From the NCBI GenBank assembly GCA_963843145.1, contig CAWJJC010000012.1:96001-160000 (forward strand): a DNA stretch of 64,000 bases, given 5' to 3'. The translations under genes were made by a program, and so were the position numbers. How positions within the stretch are numbered: the first letter of the stretch is position 1; every line of letters begins with the position of its first letter. The notes beneath the pieces are model-generated. The model saw only the letters and a program-made list of their open reading frames with translations. It ran no database searches and was not told where the DNA came from. The stretch comes from an uncultured delta proteobacterium. GTDB taxonomy: Bacteria > Desulfobacterota > RBG-13-43-22. Shown piece after piece: positions 1 to 59,863 of the stretch.

Positions 1-485
1 GAGCGGAATATGAGCGCTTTGTGGCTGACGGAGTCCCGATGGGCCGACGGTCTGATTTAGTTGGCGGGGGGTTGATCCGCAGCGCCGGCGGTTGGTCCCA
101 GGTGCTGTCTCTGCGACGGCATAAACAGCGTATGGCCTCGGATGAGCGAATTCTGGGGAGCGGGGAGTTCATTGAGGAGGTCCTGTCCCAAGCGGAGAAA
201 CGGTTAGAGGAAACGCTCCGACTCAAAGCTCGGAAGGTTGAACTGGGTACCCTGGCCTCCCGGGTTTCCCGATCAGAAGGAATAGATTGGGACTTGGTTC
301 GGTCCGGAAGTCGAGCCGCTGAGGTAGTGAAGACCCGAAGACTTTTCTGTCAACTGGCAGTCAAAAAATTAGGATATTCGGGGGCGGAAGTAGCGCGCTA
401 CTTAGGAACAACGACGTCATCCGTTACCCGGTTGGCAAACGCCCCGGAAATGCCTGGCCTCTGTTACTCGAATTATGCAATATAG
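1..485 (+). CDS. REP-associated tyrosine transposase (RAYT, IS200/IS605 superfamily), C-terminal part; 5' end lies outside the window
   Basis: GRRSDLVGGGLIRSAGGWS and SDERILGSGEF motifs plus a C-terminal HTH (LGYSGAEVARYLG), as recalled for deltaproteobacterial RAYT-like transposases. Followed by CAACGTCCC at ~488-496. Confidence 0.75.
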   Translation, partial: AEYERFVADGVPMGRRSDLVGGGLIRSAGGWSQVLSLRRHKQRMASDERILGSGEFIEEVLSQAEKRLEETLRLKARKVELGTLASRVSRSEGIDWDLVRSGSRAAEVVKTRRLFCQLAVKKLGYSGAEVARYLGTTTSSVTRLANAPEMPGLCYSNYAI

Positions 486-829: not shown

Positions 830-901
830 GCCTAACAATCGCATACAGTCGACCCGAAAACCGCTGCGCGGGTATCGGTCGACCGATGTGTGGCGTTGGC
901 G
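830..901 (+). mobile_element. attC site 1
   Basis: R'' GCCTAAC (830-836), imperfect inverted repeat (GTCGACC..GGTCGAC), R' GTTGGCG (895-901). Confidence 0.8.
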
Positions 902-980
902 CCGCCTGCGGCGTTGCCCCTATCGGGTCCATGTTCCGGCCGGCTCCGCCTACGGCGGCGCCAACCCGGCCATTGGACAC
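899..980 (+). repeat. Conserved structured element immediately after attC, copy 1
   Basis: Near-identical to 2533-2628. Nested hairpin GTCCA..GGCCGG..CCGCC-tac-GGCGG..CCGGCC..TGGAC. Confidence 0.8.
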
Positions 981-1098
981 CAATGTCACTTGCTTGCATG
1001 GCCTTCTGCCCCGCTAGCTGCGTGCCACGGGCCAACGCCCCATTACCATATACCTTTGAAGGTCTATTTTTTGAAAACTTATTTTGGACGAGTGTGAG

Positions 1099-2424
1099 AT
1101 GAACCCTATCTGTATAGTAGACGATGAATCTTCCATCTGTTCCACAGTAGCGAGCATCCTGAAGGACGAGGGGTATCAGTCCCTCATATTTCCGGATGCG
1201 GAGAAATTCTGGCAGAGGCTTGATACAATGGAGCCCGCTCTCGTCATGCTGGATATCTGGCTCCCAGGCACAGACGGTTTGCAGCTTCTGAAACGTCTGC
1301 ATGGCCGATTTCCCGCACTCCCCATCATCATGATGAGCGGACATGCCGGCATCGAGGCAGCGGTTGCCGCCATAAAGGCCGGTGCCTACGATTTTTTGGA
1401 AAAACCGCTGCATATGGAGGTATTACTCGACAAGGTGAAGTCTGCCCTTAAGCATCGACCTTCTATGAGTGGCGCGACCCTGCCTTCGGATACGAGGCTT
1501 GAGATCGTCAGCGCCGACCTTTTGATGCCTCCAGGCATGGTGGAGGCGGTGGATTCCCCCGAACCTCAACGCACTCTCAGAGGGAATGTTGTCCTTAACG
1601 GTATAGGGCTTCTGAGCGGCCGGAACACAGGTATCATTCTGAGCCCCCTTGGGACCAATGAAGGGATCGTTTTTCAAACTCTCGACGGTCAAACCATTCG
1701 TGGACATATCACCTCCTTAGAAAATTTCCCCCAAACTGTTTCATTGAAGACCTTCTCTGCCAACTCCACCACCCTGGACAACGGCAGGCAGCAGGTGCGT
1801 ACGGTTGAACACCTGATGGCGGTTCTTTCCATGTACGGCATAACCAACGTGCTCATAAAGGTCGACGACGAGGTGCCGAACATAGACGGCTCCGCTAAGG
1901 ACTTCTGTGATCTCATATTACAGGCAGGGATAGAAGAACAGCGAGCATTCACCAGGGTTGCTGTCATCCGCCAGAAGCTCGGAGTGGGAAACGAGGAGAG
2001 GCATGAAAAGCATCTCTATGCGGAGCCTTATGAAGGGTTCGAAATATCGATGAGGGTTGATTACCCCCCACCCATAGATGAACAGATTCTCACTTTTAAT
2101 CCTGAAAAAGAATCTTTTGCAAAAGAAATAGCCCCTGCTCGCTCATTCAACACTTTTGAGAATATCGAAATAGCTCAGAAGCTTGGGAAGGTCGGAGGCG
2201 GGTATCTCCATTCCCATATCATCATGTACGAAGGCAAGGTTATCAATACGGAGCTCCGTTATGCCGACGAGTTCGTGCGTCACAAGATATTGGACCTGAT
2301 CGGAGACCTCTACCTCCTCGGCTTCCCCATCAGAGGACGTATTACCGCCAACATGACCTCTCACAGTTACAATCAGGCCCTAGTGGAACGCTTGTACCAG
2401 GCTATCCAAAGCAGCTCCAGATGA
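1099..2424 (+). CDS. lpxC: Response-regulator receiver domain fused to UDP-3-O-acyl-N-acetylglucosamine deacetylase (REC-LpxC)
   Basis: N-terminal REC motifs (IVDDE, LDIWLPG, MSGH, FLEKP). C-terminal LpxC motifs QRTL, TVEHL, EVPNIDGSA, IAPARSF, RHKILDLIGDL. Confidence 0.9.
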   Translation: MNPICIVDDESSICSTVASILKDEGYQSLIFPDAEKFWQRLDTMEPALVMLDIWLPGTDGLQLLKRLHGRFPALPIIMMSGHAGIEAAVAAIKAGAYDFLEKPLHMEVLLDKVKSALKHRPSMSGATLPSDTRLEIVSADLLMPPGMVEAVDSPEPQRTLRGNVVLNGIGLLSGRNTGIILSPLGTNEGIVFQTLDGQTIRGHITSLENFPQTVSLKTFSANSTTLDNGRQQVRTVEHLMAVLSMYGITNVLIKVDDEVPNIDGSAKDFCDLILQAGIEEQRAFTRVAVIRQKLGVGNEERHEKHLYAEPYEGFEISMRVDYPPPIDEQILTFNPEKESFAKEIAPARSFNTFENIEIAQKLGKVGGGYLHSHIIMYEGKVINTELRYADEFVRHKILDLIGDLYLLGFPIRGRITANMTSHSYNQALVERLYQAIQSSSR

Positions 2425-2486
2425 AGGTGATAAATAACTTAAGCGGAAATATGCAGCAGGAAAATACAGCAAAGAATAAAAAAGTC

Positions 2487-2536
2487 CGTTAACAACTCGT
2501 TCGAGCCGATAGTCCGGCTCAACTCATCGGTTGCGC
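2487..2536 (+). mobile_element. attC site 2 (short, ~50 nt)
   Basis: CGTTAAC-AACTC-GTTCGAGCCG..CGGCTCAAC-TCATCG-GTTGCGC with an extrahelical base. Confidence 0.7.
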
Positions 2537-2628
2537 CACCTGCGGCGTCGTCAAGGCGGCGTTGCCCCTCTCGGGTCCATGTTCCGGTCGGCGCCGCCGC
2601 TGGCGGCACCAACCAGGCCATTGGACAC
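2533..2628 (+). repeat. Conserved structured element immediately after attC, copy 2
   Basis: Matches 899-980 with a 14-nt insertion and a few substitutions. Confidence 0.8.
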
Positions 2629-3143: not shown

Positions 3144-3200
3144 GCCCAACTTGCCGTTGGAGCCGGCCTCGTACCTTGGCGGCTCAACTCTCCGTTATAC
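3144..3200 (+). mobile_element. attC site 3
   Basis: GCCCAAC..GTTGGAGCCG..CGGCTCAAC..GTTATAC, 57 nt. Confidence 0.85.
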
Positions 3201-3292: not shown

Positions 3293-3772
3293 ATGGAAAC
3301 TGAAGTGAAACACCTGGAAGATGAGCAACTGGCAAACGGCGTTGTGGTACGTTTTTATGATGAATCCCGCAGGGTGGCCGGTGATCGCTGGCAGGTTAGA
3401 GTGCGCTACGATGCCGTGGTCTCGGTCTCTGAAACATTTTGGAGTCTGGTGAGTGGAGAGCCGGAATTGATTGAGGAGATTCGTGCCGCCTTAGGGGGGG
3501 AGATTGTCCTTACCAACGTCAATGAGCGGAATTTTATTTCAGCGGAGGAAAAGGAGGTGTTGGTTGCCGAAATAGTCAGCCGAGCTCGGAAAAATATCTT
3601 CGGCTATCTCGCTGATCCTGGATTTCCCGAGCGATATTTTAAACGCTGTTTTAAGGAGGCGCGCGAGGAAATTGAGCGGAAAAAGAGAGAGGTGTGGGTT
3701 CCGGACAACGAAGATGTTGAAGAGCCCGTTGATTTTTCCCATCTTTTTTCAGATGTGAAAAAGAGCGAATAA
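3293..3772 (+). CDS. Hypothetical protein
   Basis: 159 aa ORF with GAGG RBS; contains YDESRRVAGDRWQV. Confidence 0.7.
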   Translation: METEVKHLEDEQLANGVVVRFYDESRRVAGDRWQVRVRYDAVVSVSETFWSLVSGEPELIEEIRAALGGEIVLTNVNERNFISAEEKEVLVAEIVSRARKNIFGYLADPGFPERYFKRCFKEAREEIERKKREVWVPDNEDVEEPVDFSHLFSDVKKSE

Positions 3773-3878
3773 CGCAAATCAATTCAGGGGGCATCTTACT
3801 TTATTTTAACCAAACAACCCACCGATTGAACCGGTGATTTTATCGTTGGCGGGTAAAAAAGGAAGGAATACGAAGCAC

Positions 3879-4391
3879 ATGAATCTGAAGATCGGTATCA
3901 GGAGCGAAACCGAGGCCGATGTGAGCGCAATAACCGAGGTGACTGTCGCCGCATTTAAGACCCTGGAGATCAGCAATCACACGGAGCAATTTATTATATT
4001 GGCACTACGCGCCGCCAAGGCCCTCACGATATCGCTGGTTGCGGAAATGGATGGCCGTGTAATTGGTCATATAGCCTTCTCTCCCCTGACCATTTCGGAC
4101 GGCACTCGAAATTGGTATGGCCTGGGACCTGTTTCGGTGTTGCCGGAGTATCAGCGGCAGGGCATGGGCCAGGCCCTGATACGGGAAGGGCTGTCACGGC
4201 TGAAAGATATGAACGCTCAAGGATGTTGTCTCGTGGGACACCCGGATTACTACAAGAAATTCGGGTTCAAGAACATGTCCGGACTTGAGCTTGAGGGAGT
4301 GCCACAGGAGGTCTTCTTCGCTCTGTCTTTCGATGGGCATACTCCGCAGGGCACTGTCACTTTTCACGACGGATTCAAGGCGGACGGCTAA
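3879..4391 (+). CDS. GNAT family N-acetyltransferase (YhbS-like), cassette
   Basis: GHIAFSP, LGPVSVLPEYQRQGMG and GHPDYYKKFGF motifs; the TAA stop overlaps the attC R'' box. Confidence 0.9.
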   Translation: MNLKIGIRSETEADVSAITEVTVAAFKTLEISNHTEQFIILALRAAKALTISLVAEMDGRVIGHIAFSPLTISDGTRNWYGLGPVSVLPEYQRQGMGQALIREGLSRLKDMNAQGCCLVGHPDYYKKFGFKNMSGLELEGVPQEVFFALSFDGHTPQGTVTFHDGFKADG

Positions 4392-4467
4392 CAAGCACCT
4401 CGACACGTACCCTTAAAGGCCGCTGTGGACGGCAGCCTTTGAGGTCCGGTCAGGCGCGACGTTAGGT
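4386..4467 (+). mobile_element. attC site 4
   Basis: GGCTAAC (overlaps the GNAT stop) ... CCT(C)GAC..GTCAGG ... GTTAGGT. Confidence 0.85.
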
Positions 4468-9230: not shown

Positions 9231-9319
9231 AATTCGGAATTCGAAACGGTTATGTCTTGATCATTTTGATTTTGGACATTCGTGTTTGTTTCGGATTTCG
9301 TGCTTCGGATTTCGAATTT
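9231..9319. repeat. Heptamer-based (TTCGGAT/TTCGAAT) intergenic repeat, partial copy
   Basis: TTTGTTTCGGATTTCGTGCTTCGGATTTCGAATTT, nearly identical to the arm ending at 34569. Confidence 0.75.
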
Positions 9320-9349
9320 ATAGTATCTTGGTTAAGCAGGAGGATAATA

Positions 9350-16149: not shown

Positions 16150-18127
<1,978 letters not shown>

Positions 18128-18227: not shown

Positions 18228-20095
18228 TTATCTTTTCATCAGGGGCAGATGCAATCTTGGCGTGAGGCTCGAATCGTCCGGCTGGCGCTCGACCGCGCCG
18301 ATGTCGTAGCTGCCGTCGGGCCCCGGGCGTGGCTGGCCGCGCTGATCGCTGGCGGGCGCATCATTGCCTACCACGCCGGCAATCGCCGGGCTGCCTTCAG
18401 TTTGAGCATGTGCACCAAGGTGGGGCCGCCATAGTTGCCCAGCGCCGTGAGCAGCGGGTCGAGACCATTGGGGTCTGTGGCCGTTGACCAGAGCCGGTCA
18501 GCGCGCAACTGTTATCGCTCGAGAGGCTGAACTTCGCTGTAGTGATTGTGCCGCTGCAATTGCCGCCCGCGGCACTATAGGCCAGGATCGTATTGGTCAG
18601 AATCGTTGAAACGCCTGGAGTGCCGCTCTGCATGAAGAGCGCGCCGCCTTTGGGTGCGGAATTGTTGCTCAAAGTCACGTTCAATAGCCTTAGGTCAAAA
18701 TAGTTGTAGAGGCCACCGCCCTGATCTGTGGCCGAGTTGCCGCTGAGTGTGGTATTGGTCAGTGTGGCCTGGCTGAAGTTGTACAGGCCGCCTCCCTTGC
18801 TTGCTGAATTGCCATTGAGGGTGGAGTTATTCAGTATCGCCGTGCCCCAGTTGAAAAGACCGCCGCCAGCGCCACCCGAGTTGCTGCTGAGGGTGACGTT
18901 GTTCATCTTCAGCAGGCTATTACCGTCATTGTAAATGGCCCCGCCGCGATTGTTACCCGAGTTGCCGTTGACGGTGACGTTGTTCAGCGTCAGCGTGCTA
19001 TTAGTGTTGTAAATGGCCCCGCCGCCGCCGTAACCCTTGTTGCCGCTGAGGATGACGTTATCGAGCGTCGCCATGCCGTAAAAACCAGCGAAAATGGCGC
19101 CGCCGTCGGTGGCCGAGTTGCCGTTGAATGTGCTCTGTGAAATGGTCAGCACGCCGAAATTCCGAATCGCGCCACCGGTCGCGGCGGTGGTTTGGGTGGG
19201 CGTCTGATTCGCATTGAGCTGGCTGCCGCTAATCGATACGCGTCCGGAGGTGGTGATGTTCAGGCCCCCGCCTCCGCCATAACCAATCCCATTGGCCGTA
19301 TTGCCGGTAATCTGGCTGTTGCTGATCTCGACTGTCCCGCCCACATCCAGCCCGCCACCATCATGGACCGTCGCATGATTGTTCCGAACCATCGTATTGA
19401 TCAGCGTAAGTGTTCCGCCGCTGTCGATGCCGCCGCCGTACTGCGACTGGTTGTTCTCGATCAGGCTGTTCTTTACGATCGTCGTTCCGTTGATGTCCCT
19501 CGATCGCTCCTCCCGCAAAGTAGCTCTGGCTGTTGCGAATCGTCACCTGGTCCAGTTCCAGCCGGCCGCCTTCGTTTAAGATGGCCCCACCCTGGGTCGG
19601 CTAATTTCCTCCCGCCGAGGCATTGCCATCCGTCAGGATGATGTTAGTCAGCGTCAGCGTGGCGTCTGCCGCCTGTAAGTCGAACAGACGGTTGACGCCC
19701 GCTCCCGGAGAGGGTCACCAGGTTGCCGCCATCAATCGTGTAGGAGCGGCCGGAGATGACGTTGAACCCGCCCGCCTGTGTGACGGTGATGACGACCGGC
19801 GCGGCGCCGCAACTGAACGTGATCAGTCCACTGCCGCTGTTCATGGCGCGGCGAGGCCTGTCCCCGTGCAATTCGTCACCGTCCCCGCCGCCTGTACCGT
19901 TGCCGTGCCGATCAGAATGAACCACAGCCCCAGTCCAATGAAACTACCAAACAAACTGACCATTAAGTCGCGCTTCAATGTTGCCTCCCAAAGCCATAAA
20001 CGGGAGCCCAGCGGTCGGTTCCTCGAGAGGACACGCTGTTTCACGACCAGGAGTCGGGGAAGTAACGGCAGTAAACGGAAGGTAGCTATTTTCAT
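18228..20095 (-). pseudogene. Multiply frameshifted polymorphic outer-membrane-like (GGAI/FxxN) beta-helix protein with choice-of-anchor Q
   Basis: ORF pieces 19841-20113, 19644-19925, 19361-19546 and 18397-19518 join into one protein ending DIGAVE..RLHLPLMKR*. Confidence 0.75.
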
Positions 20096-20537: not shown

Positions 20538-21800
20538 TCAACCTGTTTCCTTGATCCGTTCAATTTTGGCCCCCAGGGCGGAGAGCTTCTTCTCCAGAGT
20601 TTCATAGCCCCGGTCCAGGTGATAGACCCGGGAGATTTCCGTGATCCCCTCGGCCCGTAAACCCGCCAGAACCAGGGAGGCGCTGGCCCGCAGGTCGGTG
20701 GCCATGACCGGTGCCCCGTTCAGGCGGGAGACGCCCTTGACCACCGCCTGGTGGCCGGAAACCTGGATGTCGGCACCCATCCTTTGCAGTTCACTCACGT
20801 GCATGAACCGATTTTCGAAAATCGTTTCCTGGATGATGCTGGTATCCTGGCTGACGCACATAAGGGCCATGAACTGGGCCTGCATATCGGTGGGGAAACC
20901 CGGATAGGGGCGGGTGGTCACGGAAACGCTTTTTATTTTCCGGGGGCCGGAAGCCGTCAGTCCCGTCTTGTCTTGAGAAAACTCCACCCCGGTCTCTTTC
21001 AATTTCATGATCAGGGCCTCCAGACAGGAGCCGTCATAATCCGTCAGGGTAATTTCACCGCCGGTTATTCCGGCCGCCACCAGATAAGTTCCGGCTTCGA
21101 TGCGGTCGGGCATAACCCGGTAAGTGGCGGGATGCAGGGAAGGGACTCCTTCGACGGTGATGATATCCGTCCCGGCTCCCGCGATTTGGGCCCCCATTCC
21201 TTTCAAAAAATTGGCCAGGTCCACTACTTCCGGTTCCTTAGCGGCATTGGCCAGAGTGGTTTTCCCCTTAGCCAGGGTCGCCGCCATCATCAGGTTTTCC
21301 GTCCCGGTGACGGTCGGCAGGTCAAAGACGATTTCAGCGCCTTTCAACTGGCGGGCCTTGGCCTCGACGTACCCGTGTTTCAGTTCCAGGCGGGCCCCCA
21401 TCTGCTCCAGGCCTTTCAGGTGCAGATTGATGGGACGGGCGCCAATGGCGCATCCGCCCGGCAGGGACACCCGGGCTTTGCCCAGCCGGGCCACCAGCGG
21501 TCCCAGGACCAGGATTGAGGCCCGCATGGTTTTGACCAGATCATAGGGGGCTTCCCAGCCTTTCACCTGGGAGGTATCTAAATGCAGTTCGCTGGACGAA
21601 ACCTCTTCACATGAGACCCCCAGCCAGGAAAGCAATTTTTTGTGGGTGCGGATATCCCGCAGGGTGGGCAGGTTAGTCAGGGTTGAAATCCCTTCGGTTA
21701 ACAGGGCGGCGGCCATGATCGGCAAGGCCGCATTTTTTGCCCCGGAAAGGGAAACTTTTCCCTTTAAAGTCCGACCGCCGTGAATTAGAATCTTATCCAT
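20538..21800 (-). CDS. murA: UDP-N-acetylglucosamine 1-carboxyvinyltransferase
   Basis: [31 protein letters not shown] and HLDRGY motifs. Confidence 0.98.
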
Positions 21801-34374: not shown

Positions 34375-34569
34375 AAATTCGAAATCCGAAGCACGAAATC
34401 CGAAACAAATTCAAATGACCCAAATTCGAAATTCAAAACACCTCAACCCTTGAACAGGGGAAGATTCGGGAATCACCCACCTCCCGTCGAGGGAGGTGGA
34501 GACGTTTCGGTCATTTGGATTTTGAATATTCGGGTTTGTTTCGAATTTCGTGCTTCGGATTTCGAATTT
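34375..34569. repeat. Long inverted-repeat element built of 7-nt units, between convergent genes
   Basis: The left arm AAATTCGAAATCCGAAGCACGAAATCCGAAACAAA is complementary to the right arm (1 mismatch in 35 nt); internal CCACCTCCC..GGGAGGTGG hairpin. Confidence 0.85.
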
Positions 34570-34573
34570 TCAG

Positions 34574-35947
34574 TTAAAAAAGGGCCGCCAGACACTCTTG
34601 AAGAGAAGATACGCCGATTAACCCCATGACCGTCTGCCCGGGAAGTTGATCTCTGTTATTCTTGGGCAGGAGACAGCGGGTAAACCCCAGCTTTTCCGCT
34701 TCCTTAACCCGGACAGGGGCCTGGCTTACGGCCCGAATCTCACCGGTCAGGCCCACTTCTCCGAAGATAATGGTACTGGAAGGAATCGGGCGATCCAGGA
34801 AACTGGAAGCCAGAGAGGCGGCGATCCCCAGGTCCACCGCCGGTTCATCGATCCGCACCCCTCCGGCTACGTTGACAAAAATATCCAGACCCAGAATATT
34901 CAAACCCACCTTTTTTTCCAGGACCGCTAACAGTAAGGATACCCGATTGGGGTCCACCCCCATGGCTGTCCGGCGGGGAACCCCGAAATTGGATTGACTG
35001 ACCAGGGCCTGCAATTCCACCAGAATAGGCCGGGTCCCCTCCAGGCTGGGCACCACCACCGATCCGGAAACGTTCAAGGGCCGCTCGGACAGGAATAGGG
35101 AGGAAGGATCCATGATTTCTTCCAGACCGGTATCCTTCATCTCAAACACCCCGATTTCATTGGTCGAACCAAAACGGTTTTTGACCGCCCGCAGGATCCG
35201 GTAGGCATGACCCCGTTCGCCTTCAAAGTAGAGGACGGTATCCACCATATGTTCCAGGACCCGGGGACCGGCCAAGATCCCCTCCTTAGTTACATGACCG
35301 ACGATAAACAGGGAGCTGACCGTTTTCTTGGACCAGAGGCTCAAACGGCCGGCCACTTCCCTGACCTGGGAGACGCTACCGGGGGCGGAGGCCAGGTCCC
35401 CGGAATAGATGGTTTGGACGGAATCGATTACCAAAAACCGGGGTTTAAGTTCCTGCAGGGTACGAAAAATCTTTTCCAGCGAGGTTTCGGCCAGGACATA
35501 AACCGGTCCTTCAGTCACCCCTAAGCGTTCTCCCCGCATCTTGACCTGGCGGGCGGATTCTTCCCCGGAAATATACAGAGCCGTTCCGCCTTCCCGGACC
35601 AGGGCGTGCAGGGCCTGGAGCACCAGGGTGGATTTGCCGATCCCCGGATCGCCGCCGATCAATATGACCGACCCGGGCACTACCCCGCCGCCCAGGACCC
35701 GGTCCAGTTCTTGAATCCCGGTGAGGAAGCGTTCCTCGCTTTGGCCGGAGATGTCCTTTAACAACCGGGGGGCTTCATCGGGAAAAGAGAAATCTCCACC
35801 CAAGACAGCGGCCGTTTTGGGGTTGACCCGGACCTCTTCCACCAGCGTGTTCCAGTTTCCGCAGTCCGGGCAGCGTCCCAGCCATTTCGGGCTCTGCGAA
35901 CCGCAGGACTGGCAAATAAAAACGGTTTTTTCATTTTTTCCGGGCAT
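34574..35947 (-). CDS. radA: DNA repair protein RadA/Sms
   Basis: C4 zinc finger, GDPGIGKS, KNRFG, Lon-like C-terminus. Confidence 0.97.
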   Translation of the reverse strand: MPGKNEKTVFICQSCGSQSPKWLGRCPDCGNWNTLVEEVRVNPKTAAVLGGDFSFPDEAPRLLKDISGQSEERFLTGIQELDRVLGGGVVPGSVILIGGDPGIGKSTLVLQALHALVREGGTALYISGEESARQVKMRGERLGVTEGPVYVLAETSLEKIFRTLQELKPRFLVIDSVQTIYSGDLASAPGSVSQVREVAGRLSLWSKKTVSSLFIVGHVTKEGILAGPRVLEHMVDTVLYFEGERGHAYRILRAVKNRFGSTNEIGVFEMKDTGLEEIMDPSSLFLSERPLNVSGSVVVPSLEGTRPILVELQALVSQSNFGVPRRTAMGVDPNRVSLLLAVLEKKVGLNILGLDIFVNVAGGVRIDEPAVDLGIAASLASSFLDRPIPSSTIIFGEVGLTGEIRAVSQAPVRVKEAEKLGFTRCLLPKNNRDQLPGQTVMGLIGVSSLQECLAALF

Positions 35948-57039: not shown

Positions 57040-59863
57040 TCAGTGCAGGATCAACGGCAGGAATATGGTGAATACTTTGGTAATGGTATATGTCTCACCG
57101 CTGGTGTAAGGCCGGCCGGCCAGCGGGTTCCCGACCAGGTCGGCGATGGTTGCGCTGACAGGTACTTCCAAGCGGATGGTGCCGTTGCCGCTTCCTGTGT
57201 TGACTGTCACAGCGTAGACATTACCCGAACCACTGACACCGGTCACGTAAGCGCCTAAAACACCCGTTGTTGTGAGAGAGAAGTCGGTCACATCAACACC
57301 CATCACAAATTCAGAGAACGTGACGGTGAAATTCACGCTGGCAAGATTGGTAGGACTGGGATTTGCAAGCAGGCTGGACGAAACAATGGGAGAGATCACG
57401 TCGTATACGCGGCTGAATTGCGTGGCAATCGTGTTGCCGTTGCCTGCCAAATCTGTTGCCACGCCCGCGGCAATATCTGCAGTGACCAATCCCTGCACGC
57501 CAGGCGTGAGATCAAAGGTGTAACTTGCACCGCTACCCGTGAAGTTGCTGACCGCGCCATTCGCAGGAACGATGTCGGTGGATGTAAAGCCGGTGACGCT
57601 TTCGCTGAAGGTCACCCTGACCGCAATAGGTGAAGTATTGGTCGGATCGGAGGCGAGCGAAGTCATCGTCACGGTCGGTGCAGTGGTGTCGATCACCCAG
57701 GTATATGTTGCCGTGCTGCTGTTGGTCGCCGCGTCGGTGACACGCACTGTGAAGGTGTGAGAGCCTTCGCCCAGTGGTCCCGCATAGGACTGGCTGCCGG
57801 TCGTGGTGCAGGTCGCAAATGATCCGTCATCCAGTTTACAATCGACAGATGTTGGGCTTCCAGCGGGTGTGAACGTAAAGGCAGCCGAAGTGCTGTTGGT
57901 CGGGTTGGTGGGATGGGTGTCGATCGTCACGGTCGGTGCAGTGGTGTCGATGCCTGCGATAGCATCAGACAGGCTGTAAGCGGTATTCCCGAGAGCGTCT
58001 ACCGCTTTATAACATACCTTTGTGCCGTTGTCAGACTCAGATGAGAATGTCTGGCTGGAATATGCAATAAAGGCCAAACTGCTGTCGCAGATCGTGCCGG
58101 TGGTATTGCTCATCATCAATGTGCCGCCCGGCGCACTGGCTGTAATGGTTTTGTTCAACGCTGCGCTGGTGTCAGGTTCGGTGATCGTGATCGTCGGAGC
58201 AGTTGTATCAATCACGTAGGTCTGGTCAATGCTGGGTTCGCTGACCGCAGGGCATTGCCTCCCAAATCTGTGATGGTTGGTGTAGCGCTAAGATTGAGGT
58301 TGACATCACCATTAAAACTTGCCAAATCACCTCCGGAGATGGTCACATCATAAGTGCTGGTAGTAACCTGGGAGACGGCGTTGACTGTTGCAGTGCTCGT
58401 AGAGTTCTTAACGAAATCGGCAATATCCACATGCGTCATAGGTTCGCTGAACGTGGCCAGGAAGGTGAGAGTATCCGCGTTCGTGGGGCTGGTGGCCGGT
58501 GTCTTCAGGGTGAATGAAGTCACACTGGGTGCGATAAAGTCATCTTGCTCAAACGCGCCGATGTCACAGTGCGACCCTTGTGGACGAGAGACGCCGCGCT
58601 GGTCGGTGGGAGGACAGACACCATCGTCCCCCGTATTGATGGCTGAGGAGCCTGCCAGGAGCGGGATGGTCTTGGTGAAACCGCCATAGTTGCCGAGCGT
58701 GCCGAGCATGGGGTCAGCGGGAATTATATTCGTGCAAGTGCTTCCAGTAGGGCAATCGCCCTCCACGACACTATCCCTCACGATGGGAACACCAGCAGTG
58801 AAGTTGTAAATCTGCGCACCGCTGGGAGCTGTATTGCCCCAGAAGATCGCGTTATAGATTATTGGAGCACTGGTAACATTGTACATCCCGCCGCCTTCCG
58901 ACACAGCCGAATTATCGCTAAAGGTGACGTTCCAAAGGTTCGGAGCGCTGGTATCGTTGTACATCCCGCCGCCTTCCGACACAGCCGAATTATCGCTGAA
59001 GGTAACGTTAATAAGGTGCGTACTGCTGGTAAAGTTGTACATCCCGCCGCCATATGTCGCCGAGTTGTTGTTGAAGGTGACATTCGTCAACGGATGATTG
59101 CTGGTAAAGTTGTATATTCCGCCGCCATATGTCGCCGAGTTGTTGTTGAAGGTGACATTCGTCAACGATATAAGATGGCTGGTATCGTTGTACATCCCGC
59201 CACCTTCCTGCCCAGCCGAATTATCGCTGAAAGTAACGTTCATCAACGTTGGATTGCTGGTATAGTTGTACATCCCGCCACCACAATTACTGGCTGAATT
59301 GCCGCTTAATATGACGTTCATCAACATTGGATTGCTGGTAGGGTTGTACATTCCGCCACCGCAATTATTGGGTTTGGTATCGTCATTAGCATTTCCCGCC
59401 GTGATTGTGAAGCCATCCAGGATCGCGCCGGTTACGCCGATGACAACGTGATACGAATTGTCGCTGTTGCTTGCAGTGCCAATCTCACCGCTCAGAATGT
59501 GACGTTGGCCGCAGGATTGCGCTGAGTGCGTGCCTCCTCGGTTCCGATGAAACCGCCGTAGAGGGCGACTCCATTCTTGAGTTGGAAGGTATCGGTGCGG
59601 AGTGTGCCGGGGGTGTATGTCCCGGCCGCAGCCCAGATCTCAGTGCAGGGGGGTGCGCCCAGCGCCGATTTCAGATCAGTATAGGCATTCGTCCAGGATG
59701 TGCCGGAGTTGGTTCCGCTGGCATTCCACTTGACGTAACATTCCCCCGCCGCGTGCGCAGGCGTTACATCTAAGGTGCCAAAGGTAAGCGCCAGTATGAA
59801 CAATATGAACAAAAGGTTAAACGAGATTGGATACAAACGAGGAATTGATCTCTTTTTGAACAT
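57040..59863 (-). pseudogene. Frameshifted large surface protein (beta-helix, choice-of-anchor Q, Ig-like repeats) with C-terminal FLPLI motif
   Basis: ORFs 59492-59944, 58212-59351 and 57040-58215 join through two frameshifts; signal peptide; ends VFTIFLPLILH*. Confidence 0.8.
58879..59365 (-). repeat. Intragenic 75-78 nt tandem repeats (GGGMYN..NVTFS.NSA)
   Basis: TTGTA(C/T)AT(C/T)CCGCC recurs at 58879, 58957, 59035, 59110 and further copies. Confidence 0.85.

Follow-up and report, generated by a model that had tools for sequence, protein, structure and literature searches.

The 64,000-nucleotide stretch of DNA analyzed here (the window; contig CAWJJC010000012.1, positions 96,001 to 160,000, from an uncultured delta proteobacterium) encodes a protein in which the receiver (REC) domain of a response regulator is joined to LpxC. 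LpxC carries out the committed, drug-targeted step of lipid A synthesis, and its regulation outside enterics is an open question. We read this REC-LpxC fusion, with a probability of roughly 60%, as a phosphorylation-controlled LpxC, that is, a response regulator with an enzyme output, probably fed by the kinase NtrY. The evidence comes from the residues of the two domains, the origin of the receiver, the architectures of related proteins, and the genes lost from genomes that carry them.

The window fusion is an intact NtrX-type receiver on a flexible linker to an intact LpxC (Table 1). The match to the LpxC family model PF03331 covers model positions 1 to 267 of 268, a complete domain, and the protein scores 210.8 against the NCBIfam lpxC equivalog model TIGR00325 (cut-off, 187.25). 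The receiver carries D8-D9, D52 (in an LDIW motif), S80 (in SGH), and K102-P103; across 37 fusion proteins D9, S80, and K102 never vary, whereas conservation of D8 and D52 is at least 90%. In the LpxC part, E237-H238, H395-K396-x-x-D399, D403, and H422 align with the solved enzymes, the threonine of which (T191) is replaced by S349. A search of solved structures matched this part to Pseudomonas aeruginosa-type LpxC chains (E = 7e-41), with the Glu-His pair, the HKxxD...D motif, and the late His all in register. An earlier reading of the DNA letters, made without database searches (the sequence-only reading), had described an intact receiver fused in frame to an LpxC with its zinc ligands and a late histidine; both Pfam domains (PF00072 and PF03331) and all of the motifs that it named were found. 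Across 42 fused forms, the catalytic residues (E, H, F, H, K, D, D, and H), zinc ligands included, are unchanged in every one, and the T191 position is Ser in two. An AlphaFold2 model (37 fusion sequences) had a mean predicted local distance difference test score (pLDDT) of 84.3, with both domains well folded and pLDDT below 50 at residues 120 to 140 of the linker. Docking of REC to LpxC as two separate chains returned a score of 0.00, which is no answer and was not counted as evidence either way. An assembly artefact or a frameshifted pair of genes was ruled out because all 120 clusters among the matches listed (84 to 92% identity, 438 to 462 amino acids [aa]) have both domains and 50 species genomes encode the fusion.

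The receiver is most similar to that of NtrX. NF051870 (NtrX) was the best NCBIfam match of the fusion REC, at 109 bits against a cut-off of 600 that applies to the whole protein; of the NtrX architecture (REC, AAA+ without GAFTGA, and HTH_8), the fusion has REC alone. Among paralogs in its own genome, ntrX was the best match for the window receiver (85.5 bits, versus 67.8 for the next), and the ntrX of the window genome was likewise the best match there for the receivers of different REC-LpxC proteins from a sister genus, g4 (130 and 118 bits, versus 105 and 100 for the next). The best-scoring REC chains in the Protein Data Bank were 4d6x and 5m7n, which we take to be NtrX, although the molecule names in the search output do not say so. 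The canonical lpxC of the genome stands on another contig (C17:96000-110000, L084) in an apparent operon, lpxC-DUF4390-ntrY-ntrX-nadK, that adjoins mltA, and two relatives elsewhere in the family have the same gene order. The C17 locus encodes the candidate kinase, NtrY (NtrY_N, HAMP, PAS, HisKA, and HATPase), next to a regulator with REC, a sigma-54-type AAA+ domain, and HTH_8. The proposal that the receiver is NtrX-like and that the fusion came from an ntrX-lpxC neighborhood is well supported by the NCBIfam match, the paralog scores, this locus, and the NtrX-LpxC relatives described below.

We searched 1.84 billion cluster representatives for related proteins and annotated 50 matches with Pfam; long-form clusters were defined at 50% identity, and the counts refer to near-full-length LpxC domains. 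REC-LpxC accounted for 19 rows, the window protein included. A further 15 clusters (650 to 736 aa) combined REC, AAA+, AAA-lid, and LpxC; HTH_8 was detected in 6 of these 15 long forms and a GAFTGA loop in none of them. In the three long forms scanned, NtrX was the top NCBIfam model over the first ~450 residues (335 to 344 bits, below the NF051870 cut-off of 600). The AAA+ score was as low as 30 bits in some long forms, as if these domains were decaying. Three clusters were intermediate in size (483 to 505 aa), one of them REC-HTH_8-LpxC, and five had AAA+-LpxC with no REC match, some of which begin inside AAA+ and may be N-terminally truncated. The family is large and REC-LpxC is not a rare architecture; LpxC is a recurrent output of signaling proteins.

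An unrooted tree of 108 LpxC domains (quick maximum-likelihood search; support by the Shimodaira-Hasegawa-like approximate likelihood ratio test [SH-aLRT] only) separated the 60 canonical sequences, LpxC-FabZ proteins included, from all 42 fused rows plus 6 rows showing an LpxC domain alone by a branch with SH-aLRT support of 96%. Long and short fused forms were interleaved, with REC-HTH_8-LpxC sister to a full-length form (branch lengths, 0.13 and 0.17). Since long and short forms are mixed in this way, the tree points to repeated loss of the middle domains within the fused family. Descent of the family from complete NtrX-LpxC fusions, or an origin shared with them, is a well-supported reading of these sequences.

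In the window genome, the fusion is not the lineage's normal lpxC, because the assembly (5.35 Mb, 32 contigs, 97.9% complete) has a second, stand-alone gene: the canonical lpxC on C17 scores 366 bits against PF03331, about 115 above the fusion, and the two LpxC sequences are only 39% identical. The host belongs to a GTDB order with only 21 species genomes; its three congeners have the canonical lpxC alone, and one genome of a sister genus holds a fusion copy 89% identical to that of the window. A closer copy lies in a genome outside the order, 98% identical in protein and 97% in DNA; the canonical LpxC of that genome is just 47% identical to that of the host, and DNA homology between its fusion copy and the window (1087-2440) ends at most about 50 nucleotides (nt) from the gene. 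Because so close a copy sits beside so divergent a canonical LpxC, with homology ending near the gene, the window fusion is an accessory, horizontally acquired extra copy. Its surroundings are variable, with no neighboring gene family common to more than 5 of 50 fusion loci.

No sigma-70-like promoter was found upstream of the window gene. In many relatives (L024, L026-L029, L033, L036-L038, L041, L042, L050, L062, and L067) the conserved leader is longer: some 115 nt before the fusion gene it has two small hairpins and a TTGACC word, possibly a promoter or regulatory region belonging to the gene. Nothing of this leader beyond 1043 is retained upstream of the window copy. Portions of the gene are matched at 90 to 99% identity by contigs from three RNA libraries of two studies, but these contigs cannot show that the window copy is transcribed, and DNA carry-over is possible. 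Because it coexists with ntrX and a canonical lpxC and has no promoter-like site, the window copy may be recent, possibly silent cargo. Were it transcribed from upstream, it would give its host a second, differently regulated LpxC.

These features of the host would also fit a different history, in which the LpxC domain was recruited for another role, as a deacetylase of a different sugar-lipid or as a ligand-binding sensor, and is here neutral cassette cargo. Besides the canonical lpxC already present and the missing promoter-like site, this account can call on the separate grouping of fused domains in the tree, the lower model scores (250 versus 366 bits in Pfam, and a TIGR00325 score of 210.8 over a cut-off of 187.25), and the genes of unclear use that cassette arrays often carry. 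We consider it unlikely. The catalytic and zinc-binding residues are invariant in all 42 fused forms; 84 to 92% identity across the 120 listed clusters argues for strong selection on the fusion; and in many genomes the fusion is the only LpxC-family gene, as follows.

Canonical LpxC is intact in 30 of the 50 carriers of the window clade, reduced to a fragment in 3, and missing from 17; both of the two checked among these 17 (Desulfoprunum benzoelyticum and Desulfobulbus sp. Tol-SR) have LpxB and LpxD. The REC-LpxC of sister genus g4 is 41 to 46% identical and 443 to 497 aa long, and its locus is conserved, with a DUF2867/NmrA gene on one side and an acyl-CoA dehydrogenase gene on the other. 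Fusions are the only full-length LpxC in 10 of the 14 g4 genomes; the other four comprise two that also keep a canonical LpxC, one whose fusion is broken, and one with no match. LpxB was found in 12 of the 14 g4 genomes and in 9 of the 10 with fusions only. A genome that retains LpxB, and LpxD where this was checked, can thus have REC-LpxC as its sole LpxC. The case that the sequence-only reading had named as refuting it, in which the fusion is the normal, vertically inherited lpxC of its lineage, does not hold in the window genome but does hold elsewhere: in other lineages REC-LpxC is the only LpxC and is inherited vertically.

Loss of the canonical lpxC goes together with loss of ntrX. In carriers with a canonical LpxC in which the NtrY locus was found, ntrX adjoins ntrY in 22 of 29, versus 0 of 17 carriers without canonical LpxC. 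Relics of ntrX remain in two of the 17, with different end points, and a genome-wide search for NtrX in two of the 17 gave nothing above 43 to 45% identity, the level of ordinary paralogs (orthologs score 53 to 54%). The ntrY gene is intact in the ntrX-less fusion genomes, save for one internal stop in G054. The old locus of g4 (L171-L180) tells the same story: ntrX was cleanly deleted between ntrY and nadK in all 10 loci fetched, leaving the last 53 codons of ntrX (aa 420 to 472) in L175 and 34 codons of lpxC in L171, and ntrY is intact (67 to 72% identity). In some bacteria, the family appears to have replaced both the ordinary LpxC and NtrX.

Several points weigh against a phosphorylation-controlled LpxC fed by NtrY. 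The pairing with NtrY draws solely on patterns of gene loss, and the window cassette encodes no histidine kinase; its neighbors are unrelated cassette open reading frames (ORFs). The association of ntrX with lpxC comes from one part of the data, because the 17 carriers whose NtrY homolog has no detected DUF4390 neighbor show no contrast: ntrX is not adjacent there regardless of canonical LpxC (7 present, 9 absent, and 1 fragmentary). Related genomes are not independent, and the end points indicate only about four separate ntrX deletions. Since most of the genomes are metagenome-assembled genomes (MAGs), an absence may be an assembly gap, and at least one carrier contig is probably mis-binned: over 10 kb, the fusion contigs of L032, a MAG labeled Desulfatitalea, and of Desulfobulbus sp. 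Tol-SR (L034) share 99.9% identity, while the NtrY loci of the two are unrelated. L032 was accordingly dropped as a close relative for comparing deletion end points. The deacetylase activity and the phospho-control of the fusion are predictions, and the substrate of the window clade may have shifted, because the fusion only just passes the TIGR00325 cut-off and trails the canonical enzyme by ~115 bits in Pfam. The tree, quick and unrooted as it is, and the possible silence of the promoterless window copy belong on the same side.

If the fusion is controlled by phosphorylation, modification of D52 would switch LpxC on or off, whether by lifting an inhibition, as happens in CheB, by dimerization, or through stability. 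NtrY would be the kinase for the receiver, and the fusion would convert NtrY/NtrX control of lpxC transcription into direct control of the enzyme; with NtrY phosphorylating D52 and thereby switching the enzyme, a transcriptional circuit would have become a post-translational one. The receiver could instead set the amount or location of the enzyme rather than its catalysis, for example through a phosphorylation-dependent hand-over to a protease (FtsH/Lon- or RssB-like). Proteolytic control of LpxC is known in Escherichia coli and possible in alphaproteobacteria, according to the available parts of two sources (PMC12444477; PMC3333781), and the linker of the fusion is long and disordered. We found no direct counterpoint, but the receiver is NtrX-type and not RssB-type, and the joint loss of ntrX and lpxC is compatible with either mechanism; we regard control of amount or location as improbable relative to a switch of LpxC activity by D52.

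The window gene lies in a co-oriented array whose ORFs are separated by imperfect hairpins that open with an ...AAC box and close with a GTT... box. Besides REC-LpxC, the ORFs encode a Y1 transposase, an AHSA1-like protein, a GNAT protein, a PEMT-like methyltransferase, an FMN reductase, and three hypothetical proteins, two of them listed ahead of the transposase and one between the AHSA1-like and GNAT proteins. In integrons, attC sites have as their consensus an imperfect hairpin with RYYYAAC and GTTRRRY boxes. The attC-like sites of the array were identified by hand reading and not by a calibrated attC covariance model (Table 1); two more lie upstream of the window.

TABLE 1 Features of the REC-LpxC gene and its cassette array (window coordinates)
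Feature	Position	Strand	Remarks
REC-LpxC ORF	1099..2424	+	ATG start, 441 aa
Receiver (REC) domain, aa 4-113	1108..1437	+	Response_reg PF00072, 95.1 bits (cut-off 30.2)
Phospho-acceptor D52 codon	1252-1254	+	Within LDIW motif of REC
Linker, aa 114-156	1438..1566	+	Disorder predicted for aa 120-140
LpxC deacetylase domain, aa 157-433	1567..2397	+	PF03331, 248.7 bits (cut-off 27)
attC-like site of preceding cassette	830..901	+	Boxes GCCTAAC/GTTGGCG; predicted crossover 895/896; hand-read
ORF-less repeat, ~150 nt	896..1042	+	Begins directly past crossover; own attC-like box ATTACC at 1042-1047; repeat family D6
REC-LpxC cassette	1043..2530	+	56-nt leader, ORF, 62-nt spacer, most of attC; limits by comparison
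attC-like site of REC-LpxC cassette	2487..2536	+	Predicted crossover 2530/2531; hand-read
Second, truncated copy of ORF-less repeat	2531..2628	+	89% identical to 908-980
ORF of next cassette, AHSA1/SRPBCC-like, 148 aa	2651..3097	+	
attC-like site	3144..3200	+	Boxes GCCCAAC and GTTATAC; z -1.4
attC-like site	4386..4467	+	Boxes GGCTAAC/GTTAGGT; closes cassette of ORFs 3293-3772 and 3834-4391 (GNAT)

Folded as bottom-strand DNA, nine attC-like sites gave z scores of -0.6 to -4.7. The site at 4386-4467 (-20.1 kcal/mol, z = -3.3; 1 of 200 shuffles equally good) was the only one recovered by a strict rule-based scanner. The site of the preceding cassette (-14.3 kcal/mol, z = -1.4) was recovered by a constrained-fold scanner, as were 4386-4467 and one upstream site; this scanner missed 2487-2536, 3144-3200, and L011:10182-10270. 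The site of the REC-LpxC cassette itself folds at -8.7 kcal/mol, with z only -1.7: its AAC and GTT boxes pair, its fit to the consensus is loose, and the scanners missed it. A stem-counting scanner recovered none of the hand-read sites, and a relaxed scanner gave 3 matches in the 5.5-kb array versus 9 in the other 94.5 kb.

Comparison with relatives bounds the cassette from outside. All 50 loci of relatives show DNA homology with the window only inside 1043-2532; it starts exactly at 1043 in three loci and ends at 2532 in one. Position 1043 comes immediately after base one of the box that ends the preceding element, and 2532 coincides with the crossover predicted for the 2487-2536 site. Two RNA-library contigs, from two studies, likewise begin to match at 1043, with unlike sequence before. 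Similar attC-like sites stand 3' of the same gene in seven other loci (L030, L032/L034, L036, L041, L050, and L067), and among five such relatives' genomes searched for IntI, three scored above the cut-off and a fourth had a partial gene at 259.6 bits. In the window's own assembly no integron integrase was found (best TIGR02249 score, 86.2 bits versus a cut-off of 265; 97.9% complete). Weighing the hairpins, the co-orientation, the homology limits, and the sites and IntI of relatives against the absent IntI and the partial recovery by scanners, we consider it very probable that the array is a cluster of attC sites without an integrase. The cassette position claimed by the sequence-only reading gained attC-like hairpins, a co-oriented array, homology limits, and horizontal transfer in its favor and the lack of IntI in the assembly to its detriment.

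The flanking repeats could alternatively be elements of the neighboring Y1 transposase, akin to repetitive extragenic palindromes or miniature inverted-repeat transposable elements (REP/MITE), rather than attC sites, with the gene in an ordinary variable region. The ~150-nt ORF-less repeat is scattered, with about 10 copies in either orientation on 5 contigs, two of its copies flank a Y1 transposase gene, and BLAST of two attC-like sites against plasmids returned chance-level matches only; the missing integrase, the incomplete scanner recovery, and the modest hairpin z scores would also be explained. Such an origin would leave out the separate AAC/GTT hairpins that follow co-oriented ORFs at four window sites and two upstream, the arrest of homology with 50 genomes at the predicted crossovers (a limit at 1043 shared by the RNA-library contigs), the sites after the same gene in the seven other loci with IntI in most of the genomes searched, and the relaxed-scanner matches in the array, and we give it little credence. 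Rfam contained no relevant family for the repeats or the array. The repeat may itself be an ORF-less cassette or an attC-targeting element within a cluster of attC sites.

Some further observations concern the array and its repeat. Additional repeat copies lie at C12:93552-93690 and C12:95119-95270 and on C8, C11, C21 (two), and C28 (three); two copies end at the same internal point, and a small internal hairpin shows compensatory change between copies. The Y1 (IS200-like) transposase gene (333 aa; PF01797, 40.6 bits) occupies a cassette position at window 3-485, with its start upstream at L011:11484, and is flanked by two repeat copies. A penicillin-binding transpeptidase ORF (273 aa, PF00905; L011:8688-9509, C12:92688-93509) adjoins the start of the array, before the first repeat. 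A long hairpin at L011:4047-4182 (C12:88047-88182) gave weak Rfam matches to three plant microRNA models (best, 33.5 versus a cut-off of 130), surely chance matches on an inverted repeat.

Elsewhere in the window, tandem units of 72 to 81 nt (families D1, D2, D4, and D5) lie inside two long minus-strand ORFs, at 18397-19518 and 58212-59351, which probably encode repeat proteins of one family. A 300-nt stretch is repeated at 96% identity at 16152-16451 and 20540-20839, the 3' ends of the minus-strand ORFs 16150-17928 and 20538-21800. A 71-nt AT-rich intergenic repeat with reiterated TTCGGATTTCG-like words occurs at 9254-9324 and 34504-34574 (86% identity).

Transcriptional control of lpxC by regulators of this type has precedent. 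In the parts of the sources available to us, NtrYX represses lpxC transcription in Rhodobacter sphaeroides and Caulobacter crescentus (PMC12444477; bioRxiv 10.1101/2021.04.17.440287), and lpxC is the single target of DVU2934, an NtrC-family regulator of Desulfovibrio vulgaris (PMC3333781). As far as the accessible text of a 2025 review of lipid A regulation goes (PMC12444477), LpxC is controlled by proteolysis, by protein partners, and through NtrYX or ChvGI transcription, with no direct phospho-control, and the words "receiver" and "fusion" are both absent. A full-text search, beyond the reach of which lie most subscription journals, turned up no paper describing LpxC fused to a receiver or serving as the output of a regulator, and public databases label REC-LpxC proteins simply as LpxC. 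REC-LpxC is therefore not described in the searchable literature, which is a narrower statement than its being unknown.

A more far-reaching account, which we hold tentatively and at less than even odds, is that REC-LpxC is a direct phospho-target of NtrY that arose by fusion of a whole NtrX, already a controller of lpxC, to LpxC, repeatedly lost the AAA+ and DNA-binding domains, displaced ntrX and the canonical lpxC at least four times, and travels as an integron-type cassette between distant bacteria. If so, outer-membrane synthesis could be rewired by horizontal transfer, since what travels is the committed step under its own regulation. The range of forms between NtrX-LpxC and REC-LpxC, and the loss of ntrX and lpxC in tandem, would then offer a clear example of a transcriptional circuit collapsing to a post-translational one; together they suggest that lpxC control belongs to the old, core functions of NtrYX. 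A receiver-controlled LpxC would be the first case of two-component signaling acting on the LpxC enzyme itself, in a simple testable system of one protein and one aspartate. Travel of the fusion as a cassette would mean that the mobile gene pool extends even to core functions of the envelope.

With the canonical LpxC enzymes of solved structure (P. aeruginosa, E. coli, and Aquifex aeolicus) REC-LpxC shares the full-length domain, zinc ligands, general base, and late His, and it is the sole LpxC in many carrier genomes; it differs in standing across a 96%-supported branch from 60 canonical sequences, in being only 39% identical to the LpxC of its own genome, and in being horizontally mobile. 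LpxC-FabZ bifunctional proteins (P0207, P0224, P0232, and P0248 among the matches) are another natural LpxC fusion, but there the partner is C-terminal and metabolic, and the LpxC domains fall inside the canonical group, unlike those of REC-LpxC. Clusters of attC sites that lack an integrase are termed CALIN. The window array shares with CALIN cassettes single promoterless co-oriented ORFs, each followed, by hand reading, by an imperfect AAC/GTT hairpin, and a gene found in many contexts; here, a core envelope enzyme with its own signaling domain is unusual cargo, and a 150-nt ORF-less element is interleaved. NtrY/NtrX and DVU2934 are linked to the fusion by the NtrX-like receiver, by the clustering of the genome's own lpxC with ntrY/ntrX, and by the NtrX-LpxC relatives. 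The fusion itself has no AAA+ or DNA-binding domain, and any control would act on the enzyme, not on transcription. Response regulators with enzymatic outputs include CheB (REC-methylesterase), PleD and WspR (REC-GGDEF), and RpfG (REC-HD-GYP). Their layout of an N-terminal REC, a flexible linker, and a catalytic domain is also that of the fusion, in which the output is instead a biosynthetic enzyme of the outer membrane.

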